64,000 nucleotides of DNA from an uncultured Ruminococcus sp. (GCA_900541505.1 UQKK01000007.1:2650-66649), one strand, 5' to 3'; positions 2,648 through 64,000 are shown, numbered from the stretch's first letter. Made by a program: numbers and translations. Notes: generated from the sequence alone by a model not told the origin.

Positions 2648-2673
2648 GATTCATCTCTCCTCTTTTTAACTTC

Positions 2674-15005: not shown

Positions 15006-15899
15006 TCATGATTGAATTAAATAATCTATCGCATATTTAATTTGCGCCTCTAATTGTTCTACATTCCAAATCGCAACGGTTATATTATTTGTCGGCACAG
15101 TGTTTCTATCAGTACTGATTAAACTTATCTTTTCTTCATATTCATTATAATAAAACCTGTGTTCTTGATTCAGATAGTCATAAAAACCAAGCTCTAGTTC
15201 TCGTGTATTAGACACAACGATGTCTTCACCTGTTTTTTCAGATACATAATTTTTTAAATTTTCAAAAGCAATATCTTTATTAAATACTGCTGTCTTAGGT
15301 TCAAATATCAGTCTACTGTTATCACTGTTAAGATTATATTGATTATTTTGTTCACGATAGATTGCAACTAGACTAATTTCATATGCTTCTCCTTTATACT
15401 GGAAATTGTACCTTTCATAACTATTAAATGTCACATATGACGCCATCCCTTTTTCATTTACAATTTCATATCCATCTCTGTAAGGCTTAATACTCAATAA
15501 AGGGGCTGTTTCTCTATCTTCTATTTCAACCTGTTGCTTTGCTATTTCATTTGACTGAACAGTCATAGAAGTTGTTACCATTGACACTAATACGATTGAT
15601 GTCAAAAGGGTATTGATTGTACCCTTTTTTTGAACTTTATCTATGAATTGACTCAACCTTTCACTTCTAAAGCAATTCACTATGTACATGAGCATTATAT
15701 AGAGCACTAATATAACTATAAGGAAATTATCCTTTAATATTCTTATAAATTTGTTTTCTCCAACAGTAAGAAAATATATGATGGCTATTGTTGTTAAAGC
15801 TGTAGAAATAATTCCTTTTACATTCCAGATAATATTATATCTTTTATCATTGCATTGCATTTTCTCTTTTGTATTCACAAAACTTTTCCTCCTAAACAT
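15006..15899 (-). CDS. Hypothetical membrane protein: three N-terminal TM helices plus a ~190-aa soluble domain, in an AT-rich island
   Basis: Long ORF in a conspicuously AT-rich stretch. Three hydrophobic helices. No recognisable family. Adjacent to a TA pair. Confidence 0.55.
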   Translation of the reverse strand: MFRRKSFVNTKEKMQCNDKRYNIIWNVKGIISTALTTIAIIYFLTVGENKFIRILKDNFLIVILVLYIMLMYIVNCFRSERLSQFIDKVQKKGTINTLLTSIVLVSMVTTSMTVQSNEIAKQQVEIEDRETAPLLSIKPYRDGYEIVNEKGMASYVTFNSYERYNFQYKGEAYEISLVAIYREQNNQYNLNSDNSRLIFEPKTAVFNKDIAFENLKNYVSEKTGEDIVVSNTRELELGFYDYLNQEHRFYYNEYEEKISLISTDRNTVPTNNITVAIWNVEQLEAQIKYAIDYLIQS

Positions 15900-46722: not shown

Positions 46723-46811
46723 TCAAGCCCAAAGGCAGCCCCTATTTCAAATCCGTATTTTGAAGTCTTCGTATCAGCAGACGCAAAACGCCGCTGTGAA
46801 CTTTCAAAATT

Positions 46812-47963: not shown

Positions 47964-47967
47964 ATGA

Positions 47968-49170: not shown

Positions 49171-49192
49171 ATTTTCCACTCCTTCTTCATTT

Positions 49193-50050
49193 TTATATTG
49201 CTATCAGCATTTCCCGGATAATCTTACACGCCACCGCTGTCGATACCCCGCTCTGGTCATAGGGCGGACACAGCTCGTTGACATCGCAGCCAATCAGATG
49301 ACACTGGCTTACCACTTTTGTCACCGCATGCATAAGGCTCATGAAGCTGACTCCGCCCGGTTCCGGCGTCCCTGTGCCGGGGAAAAAGGACGGGTCCAGC
49401 ACATCCAAATCCACAGTAAAATACACCGGAACATGTTCTTTCTTCAATGCAGCAAGGGTATCCTCCAGCCCTTCCAGACAAAACGGATGGAAGTCGGTGT
49501 GTCCTGCCTTCGCCCACTCAAACTCCTCTTTCTCACCGGAACGGATTCCAAACTGATGGATACGCCCGTCCCCCAAAATGTCCCAGCAGCGGCGAAGTAC
49601 ACATGCATGGGAGAGTTCCACGCCCAGATAGTCTTGCCGCAAATCAGTATGCGCATCAAAATGGATGATGTGCATGTCCGGATATTTCTCTGCCGCCGCG
49701 CGCACGCTTCCCAGTGTCACCAGATGTTCCCCGCCAATCATAAAGGGGAGCTTTTCATCTTTCAGAATCTGCGCGGTGCACGCCTCAATCTCTTTTAACA
49801 CCAGCGAAGAGTCCCCGATAGCCAGTTCCAAATCTCCGCAGTCAAAAATTCTTTTCTCTGTCAAATCCGCATCCTGGTAGGGACTGTATGTCTCTAATCC
49901 ATAAGAGTCGCTGCGGATGGACTGCCCGGCAAAACGGGTTCCCGGACGGAAGGATGTGGTTGAGTCAAAGGGCGCTCCGAACAGCACAATATCCGCCTCC
50001 TCATATTCCGCATCACATCCCATAAAGTTTGTAATATTCTTATTCCACAT
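49193..50050 (-). CDS. speB: Agmatinase
   Basis: Ureohydrolase motifs GGEHLVT, DAHTDL, DLDVLDP. Confidence 0.85.
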   Translation of the reverse strand: MWNKNITNFMGCDAEYEEADIVLFGAPFDSTTSFRPGTRFAGQSIRSDSYGLETYSPYQDADLTEKRIFDCGDLELAIGDSSLVLKEIEACTAQILKDEKLPFMIGGEHLVTLGSVRAAAEKYPDMHIIHFDAHTDLRQDYLGVELSHACVLRRCWDILGDGRIHQFGIRSGEKEEFEWAKAGHTDFHPFCLEGLEDTLAALKKEHVPVYFTVDLDVLDPSFFPGTGTPEPGGVSFMSLMHAVTKVVSQCHLIGCDVNELCPPYDQSGVSTAVACKIIREMLIAI

Positions 50051-50891
50051 CTCTTAACAATTCCTCCACATACACAGGCAGGGCGAACACGCCCGCATGG
50101 AGCCTGGGTTCATAGTATCTCGTCTTAATGCCCAGCAGCTTCCACTCCACCTTCTTCAAATCATCCAGGGGATGATAGACCTTCGAGGCAAAACCAAACA
50201 GCCAGTGTCCCGATGGATAGGAAGGCAGATGCGCCTGATACACCCGGCAAATCGGGAAGGTACTCACAATCCGCTTGTGCATGCGCTGGCACTGGTATGC
50301 CTCCTCCTCATAGAAGGGGCTTTCATTCTGATTTATCATGATACCGTCTTCCCGCAGCGCATTGTAGCAGTTCCCGTAAAATTCCTTGGTAAACAAGCCC
50401 TCGCCCGCGCCGAATGGGTTGGGGGAATCAATAATAATCAAGTCATAGCTGTCCGCTTTGGAGCGGATGTAGCGCACCCCGTCCTCGTGGAAAATGCTCA
50501 CGCGGCTGTCCGTGAGACTGTTGGCAATCTCCGGCAGATATTTCCGGCAGACCTCCACCAAGAGCGGGTCAATCTCTACCACATCAATGGTGCGAACGGA
50601 ATCATACTTGATGAGTTCCCTCACAACGCCGCCGTCTCCTCCGCCCATGACAAGTACGTCCTTAATCTCCGGGTTTACGGCAAAGGGTACATGGGTAATC
50701 ATCTCGTGGTAGATGAACTCGTCCTTCTCCGTGAGCATCAAATCCCCGTCCACCACCAGTATTTTTCCAAATTCTTTCGACTCCAGCACGTCAATCCTCT
50801 GAAACTCACTCTGCGCGCTGAATAACTGTTCCTCAATACGGATGGAGAGCTTCACCCCGTCCGTATGCATGTCTGAAAACCACATTTCCAT
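50040..50891 (-). CDS. speE: Spermidine synthase
   Basis: VLVMGGGDGGVVREL...IIDSPNPFG. Start MEMWFSD with a GAGGGT RBS. Confidence 0.85.
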   Translation of the reverse strand: MEMWFSDMHTDGVKLSIRIEEQLFSAQSEFQRIDVLESKEFGKILVVDGDLMLTEKDEFIYHEMITHVPFAVNPEIKDVLVMGGGDGGVVRELIKYDSVRTIDVVEIDPLLVEVCRKYLPEIANSLTDSRVSIFHEDGVRYIRSKADSYDLIIIDSPNPFGAGEGLFTKEFYGNCYNALREDGIMINQNESPFYEEEAYQCQRMHKRIVSTFPICRVYQAHLPSYPSGHWLFGFASKVYHPLDDLKKVEWKLLGIKTRYYEPRLHAGVFALPVYVEELLRDVE

Positions 50892-50896
50892 AATTC

Positions 50897-52348
50897 TTAC
50901 CCTCTTACTACATTCAAACACTCTATTTTTTCATCTTCCGGTCCGGTCAGGGAACATCCCTTCTCCTTGGCGTAGAGGATGTAGTCGATGATTTCATCTG
51001 TAATCTCCTCCCCCGGCGCCAGAATCGGGATTCCAGGCGGATAACACATGACAAACTCACTGCAGACACGCCCCTTGGCTTCCCGGATAGGAAGCGCTTC
51101 CTTCTGTGCGTAAAAGGACTCCTGAGGTGTCATCACCACTTTCGGAGAAATATATTCCTGAGAGAGCATACCCGTCTTATCCTTCTGATATCTGCGCCGC
51201 AAATCCGCTAAGGCACTCACCAGACGCTCCACCTCCAGCTTCCTGTCCCCAATGGAAAGGTAAGCCAGCACATTTCCCAAATCTCCGAACTCAATCTGGA
51301 TGTCGTACTCATCCCGCAGAATGTCGTAAACCTCAATCCCGGCAAGTCCGATGTCCAGCGTGTGAATGGACAGCTTGGTGGGGTCAAAATCATAGATACT
51401 GTCACCGTTTATCAGTTCTCTGCCAAAGGCATAATAATTCTCAATCTGGTTAATCTCCATCCGGGCGTACTCCGCAAGATTTACCACCCGCTCAAAGGAC
51501 TCCTCCCCCCGGAGCGCTAAGTTTCTCCTGGAAATATCCAGACTGGATAAAAGCAGGTAAGAACCGCTGGTGGTCTGTGTCAAGTTGATAATCTGCCGCA
51601 CATAGCCCGGATTCATGCCATTTCCTGTCAGCAAAAAGGAACTCTGGGTGAGACTTCCGCCCGATTTATGCATGCTCACCGACGCCATATCCGCCCCCGC
51701 TTCCATTGCGGACACCGGCAGATTTTTTCCGAAATAAAAATGCGTCCCGTGCGCCTCGTCCACCAGCACCTTCATGCCCTTCTCATGAGCTTTCTTTACA
51801 ATCGCCTTTAAGTTAGAACAGATTCCGTAATAGGTGGGATTGTTGACAAATACCGCCACCGCATCAGGATTTTCCTCGATGGCGCGCTCCACCGCGTCCA
51901 TCTTCATCCCCAGCGAGATTCCCAGCTTCTGGTCCACATCCGGGTTCACGTAAATCGGTTTCGCGCCGCAGAGCACCAGCGCATTGATGGCGCTGCGGTG
52001 TACATTCCTGGGCAGGATGATTTTATCGTCCTTCTTACAGCACCCTAAAATCATGGACTGTACCGACGAGGTGGTTCCCCCTACCATCAAAAAGGCGTGC
52101 TCCGCGCCAAACGCTTCCGCCGCCAGTTCCTCCGCCTCCTTGATGACAGAGATGGGATGACAGAGATTGTCCAGCGGTTTCATGGAATTGACGTCAATAC
52201 TGACGCACCGCTCCCCCAAAAGCCCTACCAGCTCCGGGTTCCCCCTGCCGTGTTTATGTCCCGGAACGTCAAAAGGTACGACCCGGTTTCTCCTGAATTT
52301 TTCCAATGCCTCATAGATTGGGGCGCTTTTCTGTGATAATTTTGCCAT
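50897..52348 (-). CDS. speA: Orn/Lys/Arg decarboxylase family I enzyme (SpeA-type arginine decarboxylase by operon context)
   Basis: OKR_DC_1 major domain (PLP Lys in SMHKSGGSLTQSS). First gene of the speE-speB-CANSDH-nspC operon. GGGAGGAG RBS. Confidence 0.8.
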   Translation of the reverse strand: MAKLSQKSAPIYEALEKFRRNRVVPFDVPGHKHGRGNPELVGLLGERCVSIDVNSMKPLDNLCHPISVIKEAEELAAEAFGAEHAFLMVGGTTSSVQSMILGCCKKDDKIILPRNVHRSAINALVLCGAKPIYVNPDVDQKLGISLGMKMDAVERAIEENPDAVAVFVNNPTYYGICSNLKAIVKKAHEKGMKVLVDEAHGTHFYFGKNLPVSAMEAGADMASVSMHKSGGSLTQSSFLLTGNGMNPGYVRQIINLTQTTSGSYLLLSSLDISRRNLALRGEESFERVVNLAEYARMEINQIENYYAFGRELINGDSIYDFDPTKLSIHTLDIGLAGIEVYDILRDEYDIQIEFGDLGNVLAYLSIGDRKLEVERLVSALADLRRRYQKDKTGMLSQEYISPKVVMTPQESFYAQKEALPIREAKGRVCSEFVMCYPPGIPILAPGEEITDEIIDYILYAKEKGCSLTGPEDEKIECLNVVRG

Positions 52349-52377
52349 GTTTCTCCTCCCAGAGGTTTCCTATGAAT

Positions 52378-52500
52378 AAAGAGTTCCGCTTGCGGAACTC
52401 TCGCGCCGAGCGCGGTCGCTTTAGCGACAAACTTCCACTGCGCGCGAGTGCGCATCAGCGGAGCGTTTTATTTAATAGGGAACGAAGTTTCCTATTAAGT
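52378..52500 (-). promoter_or_regulatory. Unclassified conserved structured 5'UTR element, copy B (between the speA leader terminator and the speA RBS)
   Basis: See copy A. Shared blocks: GGAAACTTCGTTCC hairpin, GATGCGCAC..GCGCG, GTCGCNNAAGCGACCGCGCYCGGCGCGARAGTTCCGYAARCGGAAC. Confidence 0.5.
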
Positions 52501-52551
52501 AAAAAACACAGGTGAGTCAGCTTACGCTTCGTGCCGCTTCACCTGTGTTTA
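52501..52551 (-). terminator. Intrinsic terminator inside the speA leader
   Basis: Minus strand AACACAGGTGA-loop-TCACCTGTGTT + TTTTT. Confidence 0.65.
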
Positions 52552-52819
52552 TATCCTGTATCATTCTTCGTTTTATTCCTACGGATGTAACAGATATTGG
52601 ACTTAGAGTCTATATAGCAAATATTTTTACTTTTACTACTCTTATTGACCGTTTCACAAGCTTCGTTTGTCACGAATATAGCGCCGGGATACACCGGCGA
52701 TACCGGTTATAAAGTAACCAACTTATAAAATCTGAGTTCCTCACTCAATCAATAATGCAGCTTGCGCCGCGTAAAATATTTGCATGGAGAACTTTCCAAC
52801 TACCTGCTTTCCATACATT

Positions 52820-52855
52820 CTGTATAGTAGCACAGAAAATCATAAAATTCAAGAA
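52820..52855 (-). promoter_or_regulatory. Putative sigma-A promoter of the speA operon
   Basis: Minus strand TTGAAT, 17 nt, TACTAT. This gives a ~465-nt 5'UTR. Confidence 0.5.
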
Positions 52856-53040
52856 GTTTTACTGCTGTTTTTATACATGTTACAGTTCGCAGGTACCTGC
52901 GAACTGTAACGATTTCAGCCCATTTAAAATGCATCTTCGATGCATGGGGCTGAAATCCTGCGATTCGCCATACTGGCGCATAGCTTGACAGCTAGTGTCA
53001 AGCTTGCGAGTGAACAGTACCCATCTTTCCCTTCCCTGCG

Positions 53041-55629
53041 TCACTCTGCTTTGGGAAAGATGACTTCCACTTTAAACAAATCCCCATCCAGATAGAGATT
53101 CATCTCTCCGCCCTGGAGTTTTGTGAGGCTCTGGGCGATGGAAAGTCCCAGACCGCTGCCTTCGGTGCTCCGTGAGAGGTCTCCCCGGATAAAGCGTTCC
53201 GTCAGTTCATCGGCGGAAATGTTAAGCTGCTGCTCGGAAATGTTTTTCAGGGAGAAGCGGACATGTTTCTCATCCGTCATTAAATCCGCATAAACTCTGG
53301 TGCCCGGCATAGCATATTTTGCCGCGTTGCCGAAAATATTTTCCAGCACCCTCCAAAGTCTCCTGCCGTCTGCGTACACAACCGCCTTTTCTTCGGGAAG
53401 TGTGGTTATCATGGTCAGGTTTCTCGCTGCGAATTTTTCTTCAAATTCTCCTTCTGTCTGCTGTACCATCTCCACCAAATCAACATTCATAAGCTCCAGA
53501 CTGATATTGCCGCTGCTGACTTTGGACGCTTCCACCACATCCTCTGTCAGTATCTTTAAGCGCTGCGCCTTCGCCTCCAAAATCTCCAGGTATCCGCGTA
53601 TCTTCTCATCCTGAAAATTCTCCCTCTTTAAAAGGTCCACATAGTTGATGATAGAAGTCAGCGGTGTCTTGATATCATGAGATACATTGGTAATCAAATC
53701 GGTTTTCAGGCGTTCGCTCTTTACGCTCTCCTCCACCGCGCGGTTCAAACCATTTCCGATATCATTTACTCGCTCTGCCAGCTCCCGGTTGACCCCTCTC
53801 AATCCCTGAGTAGAAATCTGATAGTTCAAATCACCTGAAGCAATCTTTTCAATCCCCTTCTTGAGGCGGTTCTTTGCCACGGCGTTTGTCACAACATAAT
53901 AGATAACTGCCAAATCCGCCGCAATTGCCGGAATCACGAAAAATGGATGCCATCCCGTGGCGACACACATGAAATGCAGTGCGAACAGCCCCGCTAATGC
54001 CACAACCTCTCTCCAAGTGACAGAACGATTCCTCCAGAACAGTGCAAGGAATTTTATCATCAAGCGGAGCAGGCTGTCCTTCCACAGCGACCTTGCCTTG
54101 ATTCTCCTGACAAGACTCAAATACCCTGCCAGGAAGCAGCATCCGGTGATAAATCCATATATACTCAGCACAATAACATCTCCCGTATCTGCATAGATTG
54201 TGGAAAGTCCACTGAAATACACATAAGGTCCGTGATTATAAACATTATCGGGATAATAATAGTTCATCGAGGAAATCCCTGTCCAGGCTGAGGACAGCAG
54301 TGCCGTAAAGCCCAGCCATATACCGATAACGACCGCAGCAGCGATTTCCGTTTTCCATCTGTCAAAACCATTCAGATGTACTTCTTCATCCTCCGCTCTT
54401 CTCCCGGCGATACATGTCAGCCATACGAGGCTTAAGATAAGACCAGACACCGCCGCGATTTCCAGAAGCAGGCTCGCCTTCAAGTAGGGAAGATTCTGCT
54501 CATAGCTTTTTTTGAGGTTGTAAAATTCATCCTGTATGGGGAAATCAGTATCCACCCATGCGGCAAATACAAAGTTGTCGTCCTTCGCCCCATCTCCGAT
54601 ATAGTGTTCCGCCATATCATGATAAGTGCCCGCAGAGATTGCTGTATTTGTCTGGAAATCCACGAGTTTCGGGTAGATGACCACATACTTGTTGTTCTCC
54701 GCCGCCATCATCTCCTCAATATGTTTCTCTGCCTGTGCATAATCCTGATACTCTGCTCTGTTGGTAAACACCTGCTTCGTATCTGTCTTCACATACATAT
54801 AAGTAAAGTTTGTATTGCCTTCCTCGTAAACCTCGGAATTATTCAGATACGTATAGAGTGGACTGTATAAGGTATAAAGTGCGTTGTCCAACATCTGGTA
54901 TATATCTGTCAGCCTTCCGTTGAGAGCCGGCGTCTCATTTACAATATCCAGCAGATTTTCTGCTCCTATGGGAGCATACTCCTCCTTTAAGGAAGACCCG
55001 AAGTTCCAGCAGTCCGTATATAATACTTTCCCTTCAGAATCCTCCACACGGATTTCCCCATATCCGGGAGATGTGCGGTATCCGTTTTTCAGTTCTTCCA
55101 GAACTTCCCCCAGAGGTTCTCCATCTGACACAATGCGGATTGCCCCCGCCTCTGTCATTTCCATAAATTCGTCCAGATAATAATAGTAGTAGCCTCCCTC
55201 TGGTTTTTCGCAGACAATGACGCCGGTCTCTGTATAAAGAGGGTCGGAAGAATTCACGTATTTCTTGCCCCAGTCGTATAAATCCCCCAGATAATACGCC
55301 ACTTTGGATTCATTTTCCCCTGAAATGGTCCCCTCCTCCGCATACTCCATGATATCTACGATTTTCTTCTCATCATATTTTCCGTCTGTCTCAAAATTCT
55401 CTTTCCAATACTGCTGGTCCAGTATTGTATATATGGCGTTTTCCATCGCGTTCTGAAAGTCTGCGGATTCCTCATATTCCGGCTTGTTAAGACTCCATGT
55501 CTCTTTCTGGAACAGATTGCCGGAAAACGCCGCCAGCAAAACAGTGCTTATCATCAGCATCGTCACACTCGCAATTGCCAGCAATACAAGCACTGTTTTT
55601 ATAAGAGGTTTTCTATACCACTTTTTCAT
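53041..55629 (-). CDS. Sensor histidine kinase with large N-terminal extracellular domain and multi-TM region (HisKA + HATPase_c)
   Basis: 862 aa. H-box NVSHDIKTPLTSIINYVDLL. G-boxes GSGLGLSIAQSL. AAAGGAG RBS. Confidence 0.85.
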   Translation of the reverse strand: MKKWYRKPLIKTVLVLLAIASVTMLMISTVLLAAFSGNLFQKETWSLNKPEYEESADFQNAMENAIYTILDQQYWKENFETDGKYDEKKIVDIMEYAEEGTISGENESKVAYYLGDLYDWGKKYVNSSDPLYTETGVIVCEKPEGGYYYYYLDEFMEMTEAGAIRIVSDGEPLGEVLEELKNGYRTSPGYGEIRVEDSEGKVLYTDCWNFGSSLKEEYAPIGAENLLDIVNETPALNGRLTDIYQMLDNALYTLYSPLYTYLNNSEVYEEGNTNFTYMYVKTDTKQVFTNRAEYQDYAQAEKHIEEMMAAENNKYVVIYPKLVDFQTNTAISAGTYHDMAEHYIGDGAKDDNFVFAAWVDTDFPIQDEFYNLKKSYEQNLPYLKASLLLEIAAVSGLILSLVWLTCIAGRRAEDEEVHLNGFDRWKTEIAAAVVIGIWLGFTALLSSAWTGISSMNYYYPDNVYNHGPYVYFSGLSTIYADTGDVIVLSIYGFITGCCFLAGYLSLVRRIKARSLWKDSLLRLMIKFLALFWRNRSVTWREVVALAGLFALHFMCVATGWHPFFVIPAIAADLAVIYYVVTNAVAKNRLKKGIEKIASGDLNYQISTQGLRGVNRELAERVNDIGNGLNRAVEESVKSERLKTDLITNVSHDIKTPLTSIINYVDLLKRENFQDEKIRGYLEILEAKAQRLKILTEDVVEASKVSSGNISLELMNVDLVEMVQQTEGEFEEKFAARNLTMITTLPEEKAVVYADGRRLWRVLENIFGNAAKYAMPGTRVYADLMTDEKHVRFSLKNISEQQLNISADELTERFIRGDLSRSTEGSGLGLSIAQSLTKLQGGEMNLYLDGDLFKVEVIFPKAE

Positions 55630-55650
55630 AATGCTCCTTTCCGGGAGATG

Positions 55651-56346
55651 TTATATCTTTTCTATCTTATATCCGACTCCCCAGACCACTTTTAAATATC
55701 TGGGCTCTTTCGGATTGATTTCTATCTTTTCCCGTATATGCCGGATGTGCACGGCTACCGTGTTGTCCGCGCCTATGGCATCTTCATTCCAGATAGATTC
55801 GTAAATCTGATTGATGGAAAAGACTCTCCCCTGGTTTTTCATCAATAACAGTAAAATATTGTATTCAATCGGCGTCAGCTTTACCGGCTCTCCGTCAACC
55901 GTCACTTCCTTCAAATCATCGTTGATTCGTAAGCCTCCGGTCTCATATACCGTGTCTTCATTTTCCTTTTTGCTTCCGCCAAGCTGGTTGTAACGCCGAA
56001 GCTGTGACTTCACGCGCGCTACCAGTTCCAGCGGGTTAAAGGGCTTTGTCACGTAGTCGTCCGCTCCGATATTCAGTCCCAGAATCTTATCCGCATCCTC
56101 TGACTTCGCCGACAAGATAATAATCGGGATACTGTTCTTTTCCCGGATTTTCAGCGTTGCCCGGATTCCGTCAAGACGAGGCATCATCACGTCCAGAATC
56201 AGGAGATTGACCTCCTCCTTCTCCAGAACTTCCAAAGCCTCGATTCCGTCATATGCCTTCAGGATGTGATACCCTTCCTGGGATAAATATATCTCAATCG
56301 CCTCGACGATTTCTTTGTCATCGTCACATACCAAAATATTATACAT
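55651..56346 (-). CDS. OmpR-family response regulator
   Basis: REC (ILVCDDDKEIVE...LLILDVMMPRLDG) + winged-helix trans_reg_C (VDGEPVKLTPIEYNILLLLMKNQGRVFS). ATG at 56346 with a GGGAGGTG RBS. Confidence 0.85.
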   Translation of the reverse strand: MYNILVCDDDKEIVEAIEIYLSQEGYHILKAYDGIEALEVLEKEEVNLLILDVMMPRLDGIRATLKIREKNSIPIIILSAKSEDADKILGLNIGADDYVTKPFNPLELVARVKSQLRRYNQLGGSKKENEDTVYETGGLRINDDLKEVTVDGEPVKLTPIEYNILLLLMKNQGRVFSINQIYESIWNEDAIGADNTVAVHIRHIREKIEINPKEPRYLKVVWGVGYKIEKI

Positions 56347-56729
56347 TTTCATCACCTCCCTTACAGTATACATGATACGGGAGATTTTTTAAGGTCTGAT
56401 TGGGGAAAATCTTATGAAATTATTAATTATGGAATAGAACCGCCAAAAATCATATTATGGCACCAGTCAAAAACGGCGTATTTACGGACTTTTCTGCATG
56501 GTGTGTACCATTGATATCGGCATTGGTTTTCTCTACTAGTATCACGATAGTGACATTTTTGGACGCTTTTACTAGTGACATTTTACTAGTGTCACTGGAA
56601 AGCCCGGAACCTCTCCGATTCGATAGGTCAAAGGTCGCGTTTTTCTGCTCCTTCTACTCCTCTTTAGTCTGTCTGCTCGCCTAATTGCCTTCCCCGCGGT
56701 CATGTCTGTATATCCTTCATGGTTCTTCA

Positions 56730-57620
56730 TCATAAACATCCCAGCTCCTTCTCCGCCCATCTCAATGCTTCTCTTTCTACCTCACTTGTCCATGTCTCAT
56801 TGAATCGCTGTACTCCTATATGACGAACAGAGGCAGAAGAAAGATATTCCTCATAGTATCGGCGGTATTTATATCTGTGTGAGCGCTGTTTAAGCGTCCG
56901 CACAGCTTTGTCTTGAATCTTCTTTACATTCTGTAGGCTTATTCCGAAACGCTCACCCGTCTCTTTCAACGTCTTCCCTTCCTGGTATCTCAACCGGATA
57001 ACAGCGGGCTGATTGTTTGGCAGACCATCCACAGCAAGCCATAACTCCCGCTTCATTTCCTCTGTATCCATTGCTTCGATAACATTCTCCTCTATTTCCA
57101 CATCCGATGAAATGGTGTCCCCTATGGTAACATCTTCATCCATTCCCGGCATAGGTTCATCAAGGCTGCGTATCTGCCTCATATGAGCCACTTTCTTAAT
57201 CTGGTCGAGTTTTTCCTCACTGACACCTAAAAGTGTGCTCATTTCACTGTCTGTGGCTTCATGACCGTAATACTTGCAATATTCTCCGGCAATCTTCTTA
57301 TATCGCTGCGCCTCGTCCACAGCATGAGAAGGAAGTCGCACCATCCGGCAGCAATTATCTACATAGCGCCGCATACGCTGCTTTATCCAAAAGGCAGCAT
57401 AATTGATGAACAAAATCCCTTTATCTGCCTCATAATGGCGAGCAGCTTCATAAAGTCCGATGAATCCCTCTTGCTGTAAGTCCTCCATTTCTGCAATTGA
57501 GGAATACCTTCGGGCAATCATGGCTACAAACGCCTTATTTTTCTCCCAAAGATTCAGCATGTCCTCCGAGCTCTGTCCCTCTGATTTTATTCTGGCAACC
57601 AATTGTTCATTGTCCATCAT
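56730..57620 (-). CDS. Sigma-70 family RNA polymerase sigma factor (regions 2 and 4) with a ~60-aa C-terminal extension, carried by the satellite element
   Basis: Region 2 FIGLYEAARHYEADKGILFINYAAFWIKQRMRRYV. Region 4 LPNNQPAVIRLRYQEGKTLKETGERFGISLQNVKKIQDKAVRTLK. ATG ATG start with a GAAAGGTGG RBS; the ORF-track start is a GTG. Confidence 0.75.
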   Translation of the reverse strand: MMDNEQLVARIKSEGQSSEDMLNLWEKNKAFVAMIARRYSSIAEMEDLQQEGFIGLYEAARHYEADKGILFINYAAFWIKQRMRRYVDNCCRMVRLPSHAVDEAQRYKKIAGEYCKYYGHEATDSEMSTLLGVSEEKLDQIKKVAHMRQIRSLDEPMPGMDEDVTIGDTISSDVEIEENVIEAMDTEEMKRELWLAVDGLPNNQPAVIRLRYQEGKTLKETGERFGISLQNVKKIQDKAVRTLKQRSHRYKYRRYYEEYLSSASVRHIGVQRFNETWTSEVEREALRWAEKELGCL

Positions 57621-57647
57621 ACAGACCACCTTTCAAAAAATGCCCCA

Positions 57648-57700
57648 GGCGCAAGGAGAAAAAACGCCCAGGGCACTCTTATTCGATTTTCAGCGTGTGT
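57648..57700 (-). terminator. Terminator between the capsid gene and the sigma factor gene
   Basis: Minus strand TGCCCTGGGCG-loop-CGCCTGGGGCA + TTTTTT. Confidence 0.45.
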
Positions 57701-57788
57701 TTTTTTTCGCAGTGACGGCGGGTAGGGCGATTTCATCCGTGGTGGGGGAGGTATGCCCCCTATTGTTCAACGGATTCACAACCTCCGC

Positions 57789-58649
57789 CTATGCTTCTGT
57801 CCCTGTCGGGTAGTAGTAGATACCCTTCTTTTTATTATCCATTACAAAACAGTCGTAGCAGATACGCCCTGTCACAATCGTCCCACTTGACAGCGGTGTG
57901 TCGTTATGAGTCCCATAGTCCTCTAATTTTACGGGTGCCACTGTCGCGCTGGGGTGCGCAATCATAAAACCAAAATATTTAGGTAATCTGTTTGCCGGAA
58001 CCTTCACGACTTGGCAGCCGTCAATTGTCCCCACTACACCCAGCTTCCTCATTTCCGCTGCTACTTCTGTATTGTCGAATACATCCGCTTGCTTTAGCAG
58101 CTTATAACTTGCGGGTGGGACTACAATAACTCTGTCTGTGTCCGGGACTTCTGCGTCATCCAGCGTCTCACTTCCTGCAAGGATGGCATCGTAGATGTTC
58201 GACTTTGTAAGTGCTGCCGCTGTTGCTGTGGTTCCTGCACCTGCAACCATCTTTGCATACACATAAGTATCTACCTCTGGAATGACTACCTCCCTTAATT
58301 CTCTGGAAAGAGCGGAAGCTGCCGCTACCTGTCCCTCTGTCTCATCCTCATCCAACTTATCCACATTAAAGATAAAACTGCGGTCTTTGGAAAGTACCAT
58401 TTCTTCTGTCTGCGCGCTTAAATCCTTCAGTACGCCATACCGTGAAATGCTCTCGGTCTCGCTGTCATCCCCGCTGCGGTTCCTTGAATAATCATTGAGT
58501 CCTACTGTACTAATCTTCCAAATGGCTACTGTGTGAGCCCCTGTCCAATCAAAATCCTGGTTCGTCAATAATGACGTTTTACTCTCTTCTTTAAATGCTT
58601 CATCTGTATATGGTGCGAATTTTTTTGCTAATTCTATAGACAATGTCAA
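57789..58649 (-). CDS. Putative phage major capsid protein
   Basis: 286 aa, immediately downstream of a DUF4355 scaffold gene (canonical scaffold-capsid order). Composition and size resemble small HK97-fold / N4-gp56-type capsid proteins. TTG start with AGGAGG only 2 nt upstream. Confidence 0.5.
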   Translation of the reverse strand: MTLSIELAKKFAPYTDEAFKEESKTSLLTNQDFDWTGAHTVAIWKISTVGLNDYSRNRSGDDSETESISRYGVLKDLSAQTEEMVLSKDRSFIFNVDKLDEDETEGQVAAASALSRELREVVIPEVDTYVYAKMVAGAGTTATAAALTKSNIYDAILAGSETLDDAEVPDTDRVIVVPPASYKLLKQADVFDNTEVAAEMRKLGVVGTIDGCQVVKVPANRLPKYFGFMIAHPSATVAPVKLEDYGTHNDTPLSSGTIVTGRICYDCFVMDNKKKGIYYYPTGTEA

Positions 58650-58655
58650 AACCTC

Positions 58656-59129
58656 CTATTCATCATCGCCCAGTATTTCATAGGGCTTAGGCTTATGTTT
58701 CGGATTGCGGAAAGCGCTTGCGACTGCACCCTCGCCGTACATGTTCGGCTCTGTTGAAGCCAACGGCGCACTCTGATGACCGTACCCTTTGAATACCTCC
58801 ATCACTCGCCCCGCCTTTTCCTGAAACGCCTTGCTGTCATCTGTATCAATTACATCCAGAAGCTCCACAGGCAAACCTTTGTCCAACAGGTACTCTTTAC
58901 AGTCCAGCCTGCTCTCTTTCCGTCTTATGCCCGTCTCCATTTCAGCAAGTTCTTGAGCCCTGGCTTCATTTTCACTGTTCTTCTCCGCTGCCGCTGTTGC
59001 CTTCTGACGGCTCAATCGTTCTCTGACAATCCGATCAACGTCTGCCTGTGTGAATTTCTTTTCATCAGCGCCCTGCGGCTCATTTTTAGATTCAACCTGT
59101 TCTTCTGTCACATTCTGTCTTTCTTCCAT
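58656..59129 (-). CDS. Phage capsid scaffolding protein (DUF4355-like)
   Basis: FTQADVDRIVRERLSRQKA motif is typical of DUF4355 scaffolding proteins. Acidic/coiled composition. Confidence 0.6.
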   Translation of the reverse strand: MEERQNVTEEQVESKNEPQGADEKKFTQADVDRIVRERLSRQKATAAAEKNSENEARAQELAEMETGIRRKESRLDCKEYLLDKGLPVELLDVIDTDDSKAFQEKAGRVMEVFKGYGHQSAPLASTEPNMYGEGAVASAFRNPKHKPKPYEILGDDE

Positions 59130-59558
59130 CTTTTCTCTCCTCCATTTTTCCGTTCGAGTTACGTGTTACCAATACAAAAGGCGCGGAAACAATCGCAGTC
59201 ATGGCACACTGCAATCATTCCCACGCCCTAAGGCTTACACTATCAAAGCAAGGAGTTAAGCTTCTTTAGTGCGGTCTCTGTATTGTTACATAAATTATAC
59301 AACACCTATATCTTTATTGCAATCTCTTTGTTTCGATATATGCCCTTTTATACTGTCCCTTCTGGGGCTGTAGCTTCCAGGACTTCACTACAGGGAGCAG
59401 CAGCCGAATCACTTTCGCCAGTTCTTTATCTTCTGTATAGGATATCCTTATTTTTACGCTCACACTCTTCCTCCTCTTCATCCAGCAGCATAATATACGC
59501 TGTATCTTCGTCCACTCCGTAAATATCCATGATTTCATACAATCTGAATCTTCTTACT

Positions 59559-59810
59559 TCATTCATGCATCTGCCCCTTCCTTCTTGCGCGCTCTGCTCG
59601 CTTACCGTATATATAGCCAAGCACAAAAATGTCACTCGCTGCAGCTAATGTGAACGAATACGGTCTTGCTTCGCTAATCTGTCGAACCTGTTTTCTCGCT
59701 TCATCATTCAGCCAAAAGATTTCAGAGCCGCGCTGCTCTCCCAACAGTCTCATTGTATCGTTCTTCTGATAAAGGCTCGGCGGGAGTTCTCTTCCATATA
59801 CATCTTTCAT
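59559..59810 (-). CDS. Small hypothetical protein of the satellite element
   Basis: 83 aa ORF with an AGAGGAAAT RBS. Followed by an overlapping 46-aa acidic ORF (59426-59566, ATGCATGAATGA overlap). Confidence 0.35.
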   Translation of the reverse strand: MKDVYGRELPPSLYQKNDTMRLLGEQRGSEIFWLNDEARKQVRQISEARPYSFTLAAASDIFVLGYIYGKRAERARRKGQMHE

Positions 59811-59896
59811 ATTTCCTCTTGCTCCTCTCCTCAAATTTCTGTTATTATGTAGCTGTATCCTTTCTAATGCCCTGCCCGGCTTTAGGGATATATCAC

Positions 59897-59935
59897 CCTG
59901 TAGGAAGTTATTGCTCCCTACAGGGCTTTTTTTTA
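59897..59935 (+). terminator. Hairpin + T8 (CCCTGTAGG-loop-CCTACAGGG TTTTTTTT)
   Basis: Perfect 9-bp stem followed by eight T on the plus strand. Lies just beyond the iteron block. Confidence 0.4.
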
Positions 59936-59989
59936 CGTTTAACTACATACATTGTAAACTTTATAGTTTACTCTTACTCGTCAACCACT

Positions 59990-60165
59990 CCTATATACAG
60001 TGGAGAAACCGTCCAGTACGGTGCAAACCCTTGTAAATACTGGGCTTCATTTACTCGGCGGTCACCGTCCAGTACGGTAACTTGTACTTGCGTACTCGGC
60101 GGTCACCGTCTAGTACGGTAACCCCTTGTAAAATAAGGCTTTTAACCGTACTCGGCGGTTTTCCC
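59990..60165. repeat. Iteron array (putative replication origin of the satellite)
   Basis: At least three direct repeats of ACTCGGCGGTCACCGTC(C/T)AGTACGGTAAC plus partial copies (CCGTCCAGTACGGTGCAAACCCTTGTAAATA / ...GTAACCCCTTGTAAAATA). Immediately 3' of the Rep ATPase gene. Confidence 0.6.
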
Positions 60166-61152
60166 AGTGTCTTTAAGAGCAATGATAAATTTCTTGGGTT
60201 TAAATCCTACAGACCACACCCTAGTGACATCATCTTTCTTCAATGCCGTTTTTGCGTCTTTTAATGCATGTTTACTGATACTGTTCGCCGCTGCCAATTC
60301 GTCCAGCTCTGAAACCTCCATTTCTTTGTGCTCCGTGAGTGTCTCAATGATAAACTCTTTCGCGTCTTCCACTACTGGACGAGTATTCCGATTCCGCACG
60401 TCCTCCTCTATAAACTCCCGGTCTTTCTTCGGTGTATAGGCTTTGAATACCGGGACGCACTCGTCAAGTTCGTACAAAACAGACCTCTCCAGTCTTCCCC
60501 AGTTTGATTTTTCATGCGATATATAGCGAATGTCACTGTCCTGTGTTATTCCAGTCATCAAGACCGACCTGGAAGAATCCCATATATCCGAGCTATCCGC
60601 TATCCGCTTCCTTCCCCACACACCAGACTGCTTATTTGCGTGCGCTATAATGATTGTTGTAAGTCCATACTTCTCACCGTAGCCTATCAGAGGGGAAAAG
60701 CACTTCCTCATGGCGTTTCTGTCTCCCATGCGTAAATTCGCAGGGACGAACGCCTGTAATGGGTCAAATACGATGACTCCCGGCTTATGCGTTTCGACAA
60801 TCTCCCGCAGCAGCTCCCCGTCAAAATTGAGGTCAACAAACCTGTCATCTTCTGGAGATATAAAACTGATACGCTCCAAGTCTGCGCCGTTCACCTCAAG
60901 CCTTGCCCGCAAAACATACGACCAGGAGTCTTCTGCTGATAACACAAGAACGTCCTCCGGCTCACTATTGAAGGGGACTTGTCCACCAAGGAGGAACGAC
61001 GGTCTCCCTGTCGTTATGCTCGCCACAAGAGAGCACCATATTGATGTCTTCCCTACACCGCCCTCGCCCGCTATGGTGGTGATTCCGTATCTGGGGATGT
61101 ACCCAGGTATGAGCCATTCCGGTTCTTTTATGCTTACTGCACTGGCTTTCAC
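60142..61152 (-). CDS. AAA_25 / RecA-like ATPase (plasmid/PICI RepA-type replication protein)
   Basis: Walker A TIAGEGGVGKTS, Walker B GVIVFDPLQA, AAA_25-like core. Upstream of the iterons. Confidence 0.7.
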   Translation of the reverse strand: MKASAVSIKEPEWLIPGYIPRYGITTIAGEGGVGKTSIWCSLVASITTGRPSFLLGGQVPFNSEPEDVLVLSAEDSWSYVLRARLEVNGADLERISFISPEDDRFVDLNFDGELLREIVETHKPGVIVFDPLQAFVPANLRMGDRNAMRKCFSPLIGYGEKYGLTTIIIAHANKQSGVWGRKRIADSSDIWDSSRSVLMTGITQDSDIRYISHEKSNWGRLERSVLYELDECVPVFKAYTPKKDREFIEEDVRNRNTRPVVEDAKEFIIETLTEHKEMEVSELDELAAANSISKHALKDAKTALKKDDVTRVWSVGFKPKKFIIALKDTGKTAEYG

Positions 61153-61169
61153 AATTGTCGGCGGCTTCT

Positions 61170-61697
61170 TTAGTTGTCTGGCTTTTCCTTTGTCGCAGAC
61201 AATGCCGTTTTTTTCTGCTTCAATAATTCTAATTTCTTGTTCAATAGCTTCAATTTCTTCGTCGATAGTCCCGATAGTCCCGTTTCTTGTTGCTTCCGTG
61301 ACTCATTCACCACCTTTCTTTTCAGATTTTCAAATTCCTTCACACATTGCCCTCTGTACCACTGTGCAGCACTCTTCATTTCCTTGTCATGCTCTTCCTG
61401 CCACTCTGACCGGACAGCCTCGTAATGTTTCCATGCCCTACGACACCCAAGACTTTCGAGCCGTGTGAGTGCGCCCTCTGCGAATCCCGGCGTTGTAATT
61501 TCATAACCGAGGATTTTCTTAAATGTACTCTTATAGAGCTTCATTCCAGGCACCAAGGACTCTATGAATGTTTCCGCATTTGTCTGACTGTCTGGTGCGC
61601 GAGGTTTCCACTCAAACATCTCCTCCAGTTTCCCGGACTGCTCCAGCATGTCCATTTCTGCGCAGATTTGAGCGAAAACATCGTTAGACACTCTCAT
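61170..61697 (-). CDS. Hypothetical protein (satellite replication/regulation module)
   Basis: 175 aa, no recognisable family, lysine-rich coiled C-terminus. Translationally coupled to the upstream HTH gene (ATGA). Confidence 0.45.
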   Translation of the reverse strand: MRVSNDVFAQICAEMDMLEQSGKLEEMFEWKPRAPDSQTNAETFIESLVPGMKLYKSTFKKILGYEITTPGFAEGALTRLESLGCRRAWKHYEAVRSEWQEEHDKEMKSAAQWYRGQCVKEFENLKRKVVNESRKQQETGLSGLSTKKLKLLNKKLELLKQKKTALSATKEKPDN

Positions 61698-61927
61698 GAC
61701 CTGCTCCTCTCTTTAAATGCTCTCATGCGCTCATGGTCGATGGCGTCCTCCGGCTTGAGCCCTAAAGCCCGGCAGACCTTCCCGAATCGCTCCATCTTAA
61801 CCATATATCCCTTGCGTACCCGGTACACAATACTGACAGATACCCCGGCTTTGTCCGCAATCTCCTGCGGAGACATGCAGGACGCCACCATTGCATTAAT
61901 AATCACTTCTACTCTTCCGCATACCAT
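61694..61927 (-). CDS. Small HTH DNA-binding protein (excisionase / regulator-like)
   Basis: 77 aa, SPQEIADKAGVSVSIVYRVRKG HTH. Confidence 0.5.
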   Translation of the reverse strand: MVCGRVEVIINAMVASCMSPQEIADKAGVSVSIVYRVRKGYMVKMERFGKVCRALGLKPEDAIDHERMRAFKERSRS

Positions 61928-62109
61928 GTTGTTTCCTCCTCTCTCATGCCAATGTCAGTGCAACCTTCATGACTCAACTGGTTAATAATGCCCCATGCTT
62001 GAAAATCACTGTATGCTGTCCGGGTGATTTTCCTGCCCTTATACTTCGCCGTTATAATATGTTTCATGTCCTGCTCCTTTCAAAAAATCCATGCCCTACG
62101 TGAGGATTT

Positions 62110-62331
62110 TTAATCTGAATCGGTTTCTTTGGTAACTTCTCCGCTTTTTGGTCTATGCCCGTGTCTATACGCATAAAGAGGGCACTTTTTCACAGTGCAT
62201 AGCCTAACTTCTCTTGTCTGCCCGTTACAGCAATCAAGGCACTTCGCCCGAATTGCTTTCATTGGTGTAAGCTTTGTCACATCCTGCTCCTTTCTGTTGC
62301 GATGTCGCAACAACTCATCTTCTGACCTCAT
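62110..62331 (-). CDS. Small zinc-ribbon protein
   Basis: 73 aa, CLDCC...CTVKKCPLYAYRHG four-Cys cluster. Start lies inside a 25-bp repeat (MRSEDE...). Confidence 0.45.
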   Translation of the reverse strand: MRSEDELLRHRNRKEQDVTKLTPMKAIRAKCLDCCNGQTREVRLCTVKKCPLYAYRHGHRPKSGEVTKETDSD

Positions 62332-62346
62332 GCCCTGCCCGCTATG

Positions 62347-62544
62347 TCAGATTTCTGTGTCAATAATTTCCGTTACATCTACGCCGAGAGCCTTGGCAAT
62401 CTTTCCGGCTGTCTCTGGTCTAATTCCTTTGCCTCCTATCGCGCTGCAAAGCGTTCCTTTTGCTATTCCAGCCGCCTCAAGGTCTTTCTGTCCCATGCAC
62501 GCCCTTGCTCTAGCAAGCTCATACTTCTGTCTATTGATTTTCAT
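62347..62544 (-). CDS. XRE-family HTH regulator (Cro-like), divergent from the cI-like gene
   Basis: MKINRQKYELARARACMGQKDLEAAGIAKGTLCSAIGGKGIRPETAGKIAKALGVDVTEII HTH_3. AGAGGTGA RBS. Confidence 0.6.
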   Translation of the reverse strand: MKINRQKYELARARACMGQKDLEAAGIAKGTLCSAIGGKGIRPETAGKIAKALGVDVTEIIDTEI

Positions 62545-62694
62545 TTTATTTTTTTCACCTCTCTTCTCTAACACACACTTTTGATTGTTACAATAACATT
62601 CTAACACCTTCATTTGATTGTGTCAACACGCAAACACAAACTTTTGATTGCGTTTCATAGGTCTGGATGTTATACTTATTTTGAGGTGAATAAA

Positions 62695-63171
62695 ATGGAG
62701 AACGGAAAAAATATAAAAGCTGCCCGCATTTACAGAGGACTAACACAACAAAAGTTGGGTGAGCTCTGCGGACTCGCAACCGGCACGATACAACAATATG
62801 AATTAAACAAACGAAATCCTAAAATTGAACAAGTTGCAAAAATAGCAGACGCGCTAAATCTGGCGTATAATATTTCAGGACATGGCGCAATATCTTTTTA
62901 TGACTTTGTAGATACAACCAACCCAGACTCAAAAGCCGTTGATTTCAATAATCAACAATTATCTTCTGCACCTGCTACCAAAGAAAAAAAAGAAGCTATG
63001 CAAAAAGAAATGCAAGAAATAATACGGAATGGCATTTCGATGGATTTGACAGCTAAAGAACTCAGTATTGTCAATAAAATGAAGGAGCTGAATGACGCCG
63101 GACAGGATAAGGCTGTTGAACAGGTGGAAATGCTTGCCAAAATCCCTGAATACCGCAAAGACGCCGAATAA
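62695..63171 (+). CDS. XRE-family repressor (CI-like)
   Basis: MENGKNIKAARIYRGLTQQKLGELCGLATGTIQQYELNKRNPKIEQVAKIADAL HTH_3 + ~100-aa C-terminal domain. GAGGTGAA RBS. Divergent from the Cro-like gene. Confidence 0.65.
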   Translation: MENGKNIKAARIYRGLTQQKLGELCGLATGTIQQYELNKRNPKIEQVAKIADALNLAYNISGHGAISFYDFVDTTNPDSKAVDFNNQQLSSAPATKEKKEAMQKEMQEIIRNGISMDLTAKELSIVNKMKELNDAGQDKAVEQVEMLAKIPEYRKDAE

Positions 63172-63232
63172 CCGCACCAATTTCATCTTCTGACCTCATG
63201 CCCTGCCCGGTAGAGAAAAGGAGAATGATAAC

Positions 63233-64000
63233 ATGGCACTGATAACATGCCCGGAGTGCTCCGGGAAGGTGTCTGATAAGGCATATTCTTGCCCTCATTG
63301 CGGTTATCCCATGAAAGACGGGATAAGCTCACCCTCACAACTGAAACGCCCAGGAAAGAGGCGTAAGAACGGTACAGGGACAATAGTAAAGTTATCCGGC
63401 AAGAGACGGAATCCCTTCCAGGTGCGTGTAAATACTCGCATTGATGAGTGGGGATATCCCCGGTATGATGTGCTGGGGACCTTCCCGGACCGTGTATCTG
63501 CGGACATTGCTCTCGCGGAGTACAATAAGAGCCCTTATGATGTCGGCAATAGAAAAAAGACGTTTGAAGAGGTCTTCCGCGAATGGTATAAGTGGAAGTA
63601 CAAGAAGTCTGTGGATACTCCAAGCAGAAAGACAAACTCTCAATACTGCTGCATAGCTGCTTATAAACACTGTGAGGCTTTGCACCATCGCAAATTGTCC
63701 GAGCTCACCGTTCTGGAGCTTCAAGCGACACTCGACCAGTACAACCTCTCACACTCTATGCTTGAGCACATTAAAACTCTGCTAAATCAGATGTACAAAT
63801 ATGCTCTGCAGTTTGAGATTGTGGATAAGAATCGCGCAGAGTTCGTCCAGATTACCAAAGAGGATGATACAGAGAAAGGCGTCCCTTTCACGAAGGAAGA
63901 ACGTCAAAAGTTATGGAATCACAAGGACGAGCCTTTTGTAGACACCATCCTAATTTACATTTATTCTGGCTGGCGTATCAATGAATTGGCAAGGATGCCG
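63233..64000 (+). CDS. int: Tyrosine-type site-specific integrase (3' end beyond the window). Missing from the ORF track because it is open at the edge.
   Basis: MALITCPECSGKVSDKAYSCPHCGYP (Zn ribbon) ...KRPGKRRKNGTGTIVKLSGKRRNPFQVRV (AP2-like N-terminal DNA-binding), then SAM-like core-binding region (...LQATLDQYNLSHSMLEHIKTLLNQMYKYAL). AAGGAG RBS. Confidence 0.75.
   Translation, partial: MALITCPECSGKVSDKAYSCPHCGYPMKDGISSPSQLKRPGKRRKNGTGTIVKLSGKRRNPFQVRVNTRIDEWGYPRYDVLGTFPDRVSADIALAEYNKSPYDVGNRKKTFEEVFREWYKWKYKKSVDTPSRKTNSQYCCIAAYKHCEALHHRKLSELTVLELQATLDQYNLSHSMLEHIKTLLNQMYKYALQFEIVDKNRAEFVQITKEDDTEKGVPFTKEERQKLWNHKDEPFVDTILIYIYSGWRINELARMP

Follow-up and report, generated by a model that had tools for sequence, protein, structure and literature searches.

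A small integrative element of gut Clostridia with its own scaffold and capsid genes, probably a phage satellite

What does a small integrated element do with genes for a phage shell when it carries none for terminase, portal, tail or lysis? The question is raised by the right end of a 64,000-nucleotide stretch of DNA from an uncultured Ruminococcus sp. (GCA_900541505.1, UQKK01000007.1:2650-66649), called here the window. An earlier description made from the sequence alone (the sequence-only reading) had seen there a compact satellite resembling phage-inducible chromosomal islands (PICIs). Our answer, which we hold to be probable rather than secure, is that this is a complete, excisable 8.1-kb integrative element of a family widespread in gut Clostridia, living as a satellite of a helper phage but providing the shell itself. 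Dependence on a helper accounts best for the data, and we infer it from gene content only.

Extent and structural genes of the element

A look-up of the scaffold protein retrieved L001, a 111-kb metagenome contig that is 100% identical to window positions 52001-64000 and runs on past the window edge; an exact look-up of the capsid protein gave no match. L001 supplied the 3′ end of the integrase gene and, 117 bp past its stop codon, a second copy of a 48-bp repeat present at the left end. These two set the bounds of the element, which extends from position 56411 to about 560 bp beyond the right edge of the window and measures 8,150 bp including both attachment (att) cores. The sequence-only reading had placed the right att site beyond the window and had proposed a matching direct repeat as a check, and both were borne out. 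The ends and the late genes are as follows.

56411-56458, no strand: att core, left copy, 48 bp, perfect direct repeat
56531-56594, minus: cluster of TG(W)CACTAGTAAAA repeats, candidate integrase arm-type sites
56730-57617 (open reading frame to 57629), minus: sigma-70 family sigma factor, 295 aa as called; regions 2, 3 and 4 (Pfam); phrog_351, E 3e-50
57635-57674, minus: terminator-like hairpin and U6 between the capsid and sigma genes; RNAfold -27.3 kcal/mol, z -4.7
57789-58649, minus: major capsid protein, HK97 fold, 284-286 aa; phrog_422, E 3.7e-59
58656-59129, minus: DUF4355 head scaffolding protein, 157 aa; Pfam E 1.9e-9; phrog_172/233
About 510-560 bp past the window end (L001 4570-4617), no strand: att core, second copy, perfect 48-bp repeat

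The element is inserted in the intergenic DNA that separates a DUF4143 ATPase gene from a two-component system. In a contig from a different sample (L019) the site is empty: the DUF4143 gene is followed directly by the response regulator gene, the 48-bp core occurs once, and the sequence aligns with both L001 flanks. Insertion was therefore precise. Past the second core, L001 continues with host genes (AAA_14/DUF4143, GH25-LysM, a zinc-ribbon protein and FAA hydrolase). No terminase, portal, tail or lysis gene was found within the element or in the L001 flanks adjoining it, in agreement with what had been said of the part inside the window.

The left end had been expected next to the host two-component system, and it is there, although its exact place is the att core, 120 bp before the 56530 first proposed. 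The cluster of ACTAGTG(A/T)CA repeats that had been taken for the boundary lies inside the element and matches repeats beside the other att core, so these repeats are candidate arm-type sites of the integrase and not a boundary. In L001, the motif TG(W)CACTAGTAAAA had 10 matches against 2.98 expected, and five of them cluster next to both att cores in one orientation. An 8,113-bp Logan contig (L003), considered as a circular form, proved to be only a unitig bounded by k-1 = 30 nt of each att repeat and is thus no evidence of excision.

Gene families were assigned with Pfam, PHROGs and NCBIfam, and all the genes listed in the sequence-only reading were present where it had put them. The structural genes of the element are the scaffold and the HK97 capsid protein only. 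The capsid call held. The protein is 40-46% identical to capsid proteins of 35-38-kb siphophages of Streptococcus, Bacillus and Geobacillus. When an AlphaFold2 (AF2) model based on 60 homologues (predicted local distance difference test score, pLDDT, 86; predicted template modelling score, pTM, 0.82) was compared with PDB by Foldseek, the top matches were all HK97 capsid proteins of tailed phages (Che8, E 1.6e-14); the top 50 matches were all virus capsids, with no encapsulin among them. An hmmscan of the protein against Pfam-A gave no match even at E <= 10, and precomputed weak matches pointed to PF25209 Phage_capsid_4.

A family of small elements and a larger cousin

Homologues of the capsid protein number more than 7,400 in a large protein collection, many of them on contigs of 7-9 kb. 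One of them (P0052, 76% identical) occurs in 427 blocks of an assembly collection, in the arrangement int - cI - cro - helix-turn-helix (HTH) gene - DUF3987 helicase gene - small open reading frames (ORFs) - scaffold - capsid - sigma, beside smpB. Its copies lie in at least five different chromosomal backgrounds, and their 27-31-bp flanking repeats resemble the 3′ end of tmRNA. A scan of species-representative genomes gave 51 loci (Lachnospiraceae, Oscillospiraceae, Acutalibacteraceae, Erysipelotrichaceae, Acetobacterium and others), with capsid proteins 49-62% identical to that of the window. The distance from cI/cro to the capsid gene downstream is about 4-5 kb in most loci. Direct repeats, where found, were 8.1-9.8 kb apart, often in the 3′ ends of tRNA genes and also in tmRNA and at other sites. 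The family has cultured carriers: Roseburia zhanii BX1005, Parablautia muri D42-62, Parablautia intestinalis, Lachnoclostridium sp. An14 and Acetobacterium fimetarium DSM 8238.

Relatives in IMG/VR are contigs of 7.5-12.5 kb, two of which are circular: L088 (9,453 bp, 46-bp direct terminal repeat) and L095 (8,632 bp, 77-bp direct terminal repeat). In both, the break point lies inside a gene, and the gene content is rep, scaffold, capsid protein, sigma, int, cI and cro only.

When copies at the att site of the window were compared (L012 and L015 with L001 and L011), their scaffold, capsid and sigma genes were 96-100% identical while their replication modules were non-homologous, consisting either of the 175-aa protein and AAA_25 or of proteins of 156, 383/390 and 88 aa. 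As read from these alignments, there is modular exchange of the replication module at one att site. Among copies at this site the ratio of nonsynonymous to synonymous substitution rates (dN/dS) was 0.02-0.04 for capsid, 0.04-0.14 for scaffold and 0.17-0.33 for sigma, all from small counts.

A larger cousin, L060, was found in Acetobacterium fimetarium DSM 8238. It measures 13.9 kb (about 1443-15323), is bounded by 23-bp repeats at tRNA ends, and carries in order scaffold, capsid, a gp6-like head-tail connector, TerS, TerL, an SPP1-type portal and sigma, without tail genes. It also has the leader RNA and the small protein p49 of the family (see below). With leader, p49, scaffold and capsid in common and connector, TerS, TerL and portal in addition, L060 makes the 8-kb elements look like a further reduction of a head-making satellite. 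Its gene content is the strongest argument for packaging of DNA in tailed particles with outside help, and it reinforces the echo of capsid-forming islands noticed in the sequence-only reading.

Two further relatives have neighbours of note. L098, a 7.6-kb contig (26-1432, 1915-7618), encodes a capsid protein of 388 aa with 55% identity, together with a DUF4355 scaffold, the leader and an Xis-like gene of the HTH_17 type; it adjoins split Terminase_6N/6C genes, which could mean insertion beside a phage terminase gene or a terminase-bearing variant. L091, a 43.8-kb IMG/VR contig, was considered as a satellite next to its helper and rejected: the neighbour has a second integrase, cI-type repressors and a VirB11/TadA-like ATPase, and its readable part has no phage head or tail genes. 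In this contig (L091 1-16478 and L227), a mini-element with D5_N/DUF5906, scaffold, capsid and sigma abuts the second integrase/cI-type element, in which the genes of the ATPase and a membrane protein come next; the arrangement looks like tandem mobile elements.

The element belongs to a kind described only in 2025, from metagenomes, and experimentally unexplored. Aguilar et al. (bioRxiv 10.1101/2025.06.18.659913) reported human-gut contigs with terminal repeats (genomes of 5-11.6 kb; dominant clade 8.9 +/- 0.6 kb) whose structural genes are a capsid protein and a scaffold only, without terminase, portal or tail, and which carry sigma factors, repressors, RepA/helicase/DnaC-like (primosomal) genes and an integrase. 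They favour an evolutionary link with encapsulins and procapsids, mention packaging of single-stranded DNA (ssDNA) or a satellite lifestyle as possibilities, and project a capacity of about 10 kb for the largest encapsulin shells, with which the 8.15 kb of our element agrees. A full-text literature search found no other description of such elements.

Our element resembles these mini viral genomes in gut origin, size (8-9 kb) and gene content, the clades being matched by description only. Closure by direct terminal repeats is seen in L088 and L095 only, whereas the copy in the window is integrated. The encapsulin-domain criterion applied to the published genomes ("encapsulin-enriched") was not reproduced for the window capsid, which had no Pfam match and whose fold matches were all to phages. 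Att sites, empty sites, leader RNA, p49 and larger cousins are not reported by Aguilar et al.; new here are the att sites with their arm-type repeats, the swapping of replication modules at one site, the sigma-like slot that follows the capsid gene, the leader RNA, p49 and the cousin that has a portal gene.

Leader RNA, sigma slot and early genes

The scaffold and capsid genes are preceded by a promoter and a structured leader, and upstream of these lies the gene of a small conserved protein, p49.

59172-59279, minus: leader RNA of the capsid operon, with P1 hairpin, P2 terminator-like hairpin and U-run, and outer helix P0
59178-59229, minus: P2 hairpin, 21 bp, followed by the U-run; terminator-like
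59294-59322, minus: sigma-A-type promoter of the leader, TTGCAA-17-TATAAT, just upstream of the scaffold gene
59314-59463, minus: p49, conserved small protein whose core spans about 45 aa; its gene always adjoins the leader promoter on the upstream side

Nearly all relatives have at the same position a promoter, TTGAC-17-TGnTATAAT, followed by GAGUACC, the variable hairpin P1, (U/G)(U/A)AGCC, P2 and the U-run. The 5′ arm of P2, GGC(R)(Y)GGGAA, is almost invariant. Covariation supported P2: 94% of cells were paired, compared with 44-60% when the partner was slid. At one pair AU (19 sequences) alternates with GC (15), and G-U pairs were common, which indicates a sense-strand RNA. Covariation was also seen at the base of P1. 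P0, formed by the A-rich 5′ end and the U-run, was seen in 33 of 40 minimum-energy folds; its cognate 5′/3′ pairs averaged -7.7 kcal/mol and non-cognate pairs -5.4 kcal/mol, and none of 5,000 permutations reached the observed mean, a contrast that relatedness of the sequences may inflate.

The window leader had an RNAfold z of -6.7 and scored 42.3 bits (E 3e-7) with a covariance model, R1. This model gave exactly one sense-strand match per element in 66 of 81 sources, including members outside the seed, and no match in 0.96 Mb of unrelated viral contigs used as controls. The leader had no match in Rfam, which found no family anywhere in the window; there is also no tRNA in the window. The three-helix RNA is apparently previously undescribed. 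A loose motif scan of IMG/VR (GAGTACCGC...GTTAGYC) gave about 120 matches, which we attribute to chance because the covariance model found none in the 100 tested. The strict terminator motif was confined to small contigs of 6-17 kb and so gave no sign of a helper sharing it.

Homologues of p49 occupy the same position in 19 relatives, including L060, with the core K-I-R-I-S-Y..EL..V..LL.P..KS.K..KG.YKRAYIE. The AF2 model (pLDDT 82.6) has a beta-alpha-beta-beta fold. The protein has no family match, and a fold search gave nothing significant (best E 0.11: NikR C-domain, NusE/S10, KH). From their position and conservation we propose that the leader is a terminator gate on shell production, with p49 as a candidate regulator; the leader could equally be a stable small RNA. 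The layout is that of Q, pR′ and tR′ in phage lambda: a small regulator gene, a strong promoter of constitutive type, a short structured and terminated transcript, and late structural genes. In contrast to lambda, p49 has no sequence or detectable fold relation to Q, the leader is a three-helix RNA with covariation, and antitermination is only proposed.

At the other end of the late operon, the sigma factor is nearest to regions 2-4 of primary and group-2 sigma factors (RpoD, SigA, SigB and RpoS, in comparisons with families and with solved chains), with scores far below curated cut-offs. It has a C-terminal extension of about 45 aa (window 56730-56870) with a motif, FN(R/E)TWTS(S/E)(T/V)E, common to its closest homologues in other elements. 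The residues of region 4.2 that we take to read the -35 element are replaced, and the aromatic residues of region 2.4 are mostly retained; this suggests that the protein may recognise a -10-like element with a different -35. A 62-aa arginine-rich ORF (window 56572-56760, minus) overlaps both the stop codon of the sigma gene and the cluster of arm-type sites; gene calling picked it up in L012, and L066 encodes a homologue.

The sequence-only reading had found a sigma factor unusual in such a place. We classified the first recognisable gene 3′ of the capsid gene in the 51 loci:

Full sigma factor: 13 loci
DUF1492 / sigma-region-4-like protein of about 150 aa: 8 loci
215-aa zinc-ribbon protein: 6 loci
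Other recognisable genes: 3 loci
No recognisable gene: 21 loci

Of the 30 relatives that could be classified, 21 thus have a full sigma or sigma-region-4-like gene next after the capsid gene. Such a gene is the commonest occupant of the slot, though not universal, and the supposed oddity is a recurrent trait.

The rest of the element holds the integrase, the repressor switch, small early genes and the replication module.

59426-59810, minus: two small ORFs, 46 aa and 83 aa, called in L001; no family match
59925-60159, no strand: putative replication origin adjoining the 3′ end of the rep gene; iterons and AT-rich DNA
60142-61152, minus: RepA/DnaB-like AAA_25 ATPase (replication initiator or helicase); PF13481, E 1e-27; primase/helicase PHROGs
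61170-61697, minus: 175-aa protein, co-occurring with the AAA_25 gene; no family match
61694-61927, minus: small HTH protein, 77 aa; HTH_26/HTH_3
61909-62067, minus: 52-aa ORF; no family match
62110-62331, minus: 4-Cys protein, 73 aa; no family match
62347-62613, minus: Cro-like regulator; HTH_26, phrog_4
62570-62650, no strand: switch operators and Pcro, three 18-bp operators (repeat family D4) around the promoter
62695-63171, plus: cI-like XRE repressor, 158 aa as called; HTH_3, E 1e-11; phrog_8, 3 and 4
63233-64000, plus: tyrosine integrase, first 256 of 387 aa in the window; N-terminal CxxC...CxxC motif

The full-length integrase in L001 (387 aa; PF00589; phrog_1, E 1e-40) confirmed the tyrosine integrase. 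The N-terminal domains proposed earlier fared less well: zinc-ribbon matches were below the Pfam cut-offs, and an AP2-type arm-binding domain was without confirmation. Pcro has TTGACA at 62626-62621 and TAGAAT at 62603-62598, with a 17-nt spacer. From the position of this consensus promoter and its three flanking operators, the true Cro start is probably 62544 (65 aa) and not 62613. The excisionase may be among the small early genes at 61694-62331. Three to four 30-nt iteron copies (TTACCGTACTGGACGGTGACCGCCGAGTA) lie at 59996-60159 (repeat families D2 and D9). Homologues of the 175-aa protein adjoin AAA_25 genes in seven relatives; the 46-aa and 83-aa ORFs are not conserved across the family. 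It had been suggested that the 175-aa and 83-aa proteins be compared with the families by which PICIs hijack packaging, and neither they nor the 52-aa and 4-Cys proteins had a match in Pfam, PHROGs or NCBIfam.

Use of the shell and the case for a helper

If the element is a satellite, its life cycle might run as follows. A signal, probably the helper phage, would lift repression; the cI-like repressor has no recognisable peptidase (self-cleavage) domain, so the inducing signal probably comes from such a helper. Int and Xis, the latter a candidate among the small early genes, would then excise the element, which would replicate from its iterons. The terminator gate would open, with p49 or a helper factor as the candidate trigger, and scaffold and capsid protein would build, around a portal of foreign origin, a shell with room for about 8-10 kb. 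The helper would provide terminase, connectors and tail to complete the particles, and its lysis system to release them. The sigma factor would probably redirect RNA polymerase late, to promoters of the helper or the element with a non-standard -35.

Several points weigh against this reading. No helper phage was found in the window, in the flanks of the 111-kb contig or among the neighbours of relatives. There is no sequence evidence of particles; with the helper and the cos site not found, this is the main weakness. The 8-kb form showed neither a cos or pac site nor TerS or any other gene for hijacking, and a megablast of the element against 50,697 phage records gave no near-identical DNA. 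"Bacteriophage sp." records from Mexican faecal samples had only the sigma gene in common, lacked the capsid protein and the leader, and were rejected as unrelated. The leader motif was not found in the large viral contigs scanned, which leaves co-regulation with a helper unsupported. Finally, we know of no experimental precedent in which a scaffold and its capsid protein take up a portal from elsewhere during assembly.

Among the other uses of a shell, the one that survives best is that it does not package the genome of the element: the proteins would be a decoy for phage assembly, serving defence, or an encapsulin-like compartment, and the element would spread otherwise or only vertically. 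Since satellites are known to disturb the assembly of their helpers, shell proteins that act as decoys are conceivable; in most of the host strains sampled the element occupies one site; and the encapsulin link is argued by Aguilar et al. We nevertheless regard this as unlikely. The fold matches were to virus capsids and no encapsulin, no cargo-type gene was seen, circular forms and the many att sites show active mobility, and the portal- and terminase-bearing L060 points to DNA packaging. The narrow range of 8.1-9.8 kb, kept across very different replication and accessory modules, also suggests a packaging limit.

We give little credence to an autonomous tailless "mini virus" or procapsid entity, with its own shell and a genome loaded without portal or terminase (for example as ssDNA from Rep) and without a helper. 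It would account for the complete circular relatives without any packaging gene and for the failure to find a helper here, and it was raised by the authors of the preprint. Against it, the replication proteins of the family are of iteron or helicase-primase types (AAA_25, DUF3987, D5_N, IstB-like) rather than rolling-circle HUH enzymes, and genes for lysis or exit are absent. Ordinary portal-bearing siphophages have capsid proteins 40-46% identical to that of the element, and the close cousin L060, with its SPP1-type portal, TerS, TerL and head-tail connector, has parts of a tailed-particle pathway.

A degraded prophage that retained integrase, switch, replication genes and two head genes would explain the small size and the missing virion genes but is excluded for practical purposes by the finding of this minimal set, its ORFs intact and under strong purifying selection (dN/dS), across dozens of genera, the module swapping, two perfect att cores with an existing empty site, the circular assemblies of relatives and the family-specific regulatory RNA.

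A helper-dependent satellite with its own shell has to be placed among the known satellites. Classical Gram-positive PICIs, including the Staphylococcus aureus pathogenicity islands (SaPIs), share the order of int, divergent repressor switch, rep gene with an iteron origin directly 3′, and late operon, as the sequence-only reading had described it; they also share site-specific integration and a repressor without an SOS-cleavage domain. SaPIs remodel helper shells through CpmAB or Ccm, usually with TerS or a cos site, and have no full capsid protein and scaffold. In contrast, our element has no member of the terS, ppi, cpmAB, ccm or rpp families among its ORFs and no identified cos site, is smaller than a SaPI, and carries a full capsid protein and scaffold, whereas PICIs are defined by having no phage structural genes.

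Capsid-forming PICIs (cf-PICIs; EcCIEDL933 and Firmicutes members) were defined by Alqurainy et al. (bioRxiv 10.1101/2022.09.08.507074) as integrative islands with an int/regulation/rep backbone, their own capsid protein and no tail. Our element is alike in its integrative backbone, its own major capsid protein and its lack of tail genes. It differs in having no portal, protease, head-tail connectors, HNH, TerS or TerL, in being about half the size, and in its sigma factor; the circular relatives likewise lack portal, head maturation protease and connectors. L060, with connector, TerS, TerL and portal, matches cf-PICIs in gene content. The 8-kb element, without portal, connectors or terminase, would have to steal far more than tails. 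The interpretation as a PICI-like satellite gained support, having withstood all three refuting conditions named in the sequence-only reading (phage genes past the right edge, missing att repeats, a failed capsid call), while the element falls outside the definitions of both PICIs and cf-PICIs.

Phage P4, whose helper is P2, is likewise a small (11.6 kb) integrative replicon that needs the morphogenetic genes of its helper, and its Delta protein switches on helper late genes, the role that we propose for the sigma factor. Unlike our element, P4 uses the P2 capsid protein with an external scaffold, Sid; there is no homology between the two, and its hosts are Gram-negative.

A more detailed hypothesis, possible but in our view doubtful as a whole, is that these elements represent a third mode of capsid piracy. 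The satellite would give only a shell sized for an 8-10-kb genome and would recruit portal, terminase, connectors, tail and lysis from the helper, or in part from portal- and terminase-bearing cousins. The shell would be gated by the leader RNA and opened by p49 or a helper factor, and the sigma factor would activate the late genes of the helper, an effect that P4 Delta achieves by other means.

If they are satellites, these would be the smallest capsid-encoding mobile elements known, and they would bridge the gap between those that remodel helper shells (P4, SaPIs, PLEs) and those that make whole heads (cf-PICIs). Their abundance in human-gut Clostridia, where a single capsid cluster is listed in 427 blocks, means that the effect on phage dynamics and gene flow in the gut could be large. 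They offer a natural test of the incorporation of a foreign portal into a shell, a compact pair of scaffold and capsid protein for work on nanocontainers, and a candidate new regulatory RNA with a small partner protein. Because cultured carriers exist, the question that the preprint leaves open is directly testable.

A few observations concern the host DNA around the insertion. The two-component operon consists of the response regulator (55651-56346) and a histidine kinase (53041-55629). The response-regulator gene starts 65 nt downstream of the att core, the sigma gene points toward that regulator, and no terminator was detected between the two (window 56346-56730). Transcription of the element might therefore read through into the host operon. 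A motif of 30-45 nt (TCTACCGGGCAGGGCATGAGGTCAGAAGATG) has three copies inside the element (window 62315-62344, 63183-63212 and 59864-59879), and it also occurs once in host DNA just after the DUF4143 gene (L001 4345-4390) and in the empty-site strain (L019 5665-5700). All copies have the same orientation, and no further copy with up to three mismatches is in the 64-kb window. Beside the two-component system lies a host polyamine cluster (window about 46800-52350, minus) with an Orn/Lys/Arg decarboxylase, spermidine synthase, and arginase-family and saccharopine-dehydrogenase-like enzymes, the Pfam labels being taken from the identical L001.

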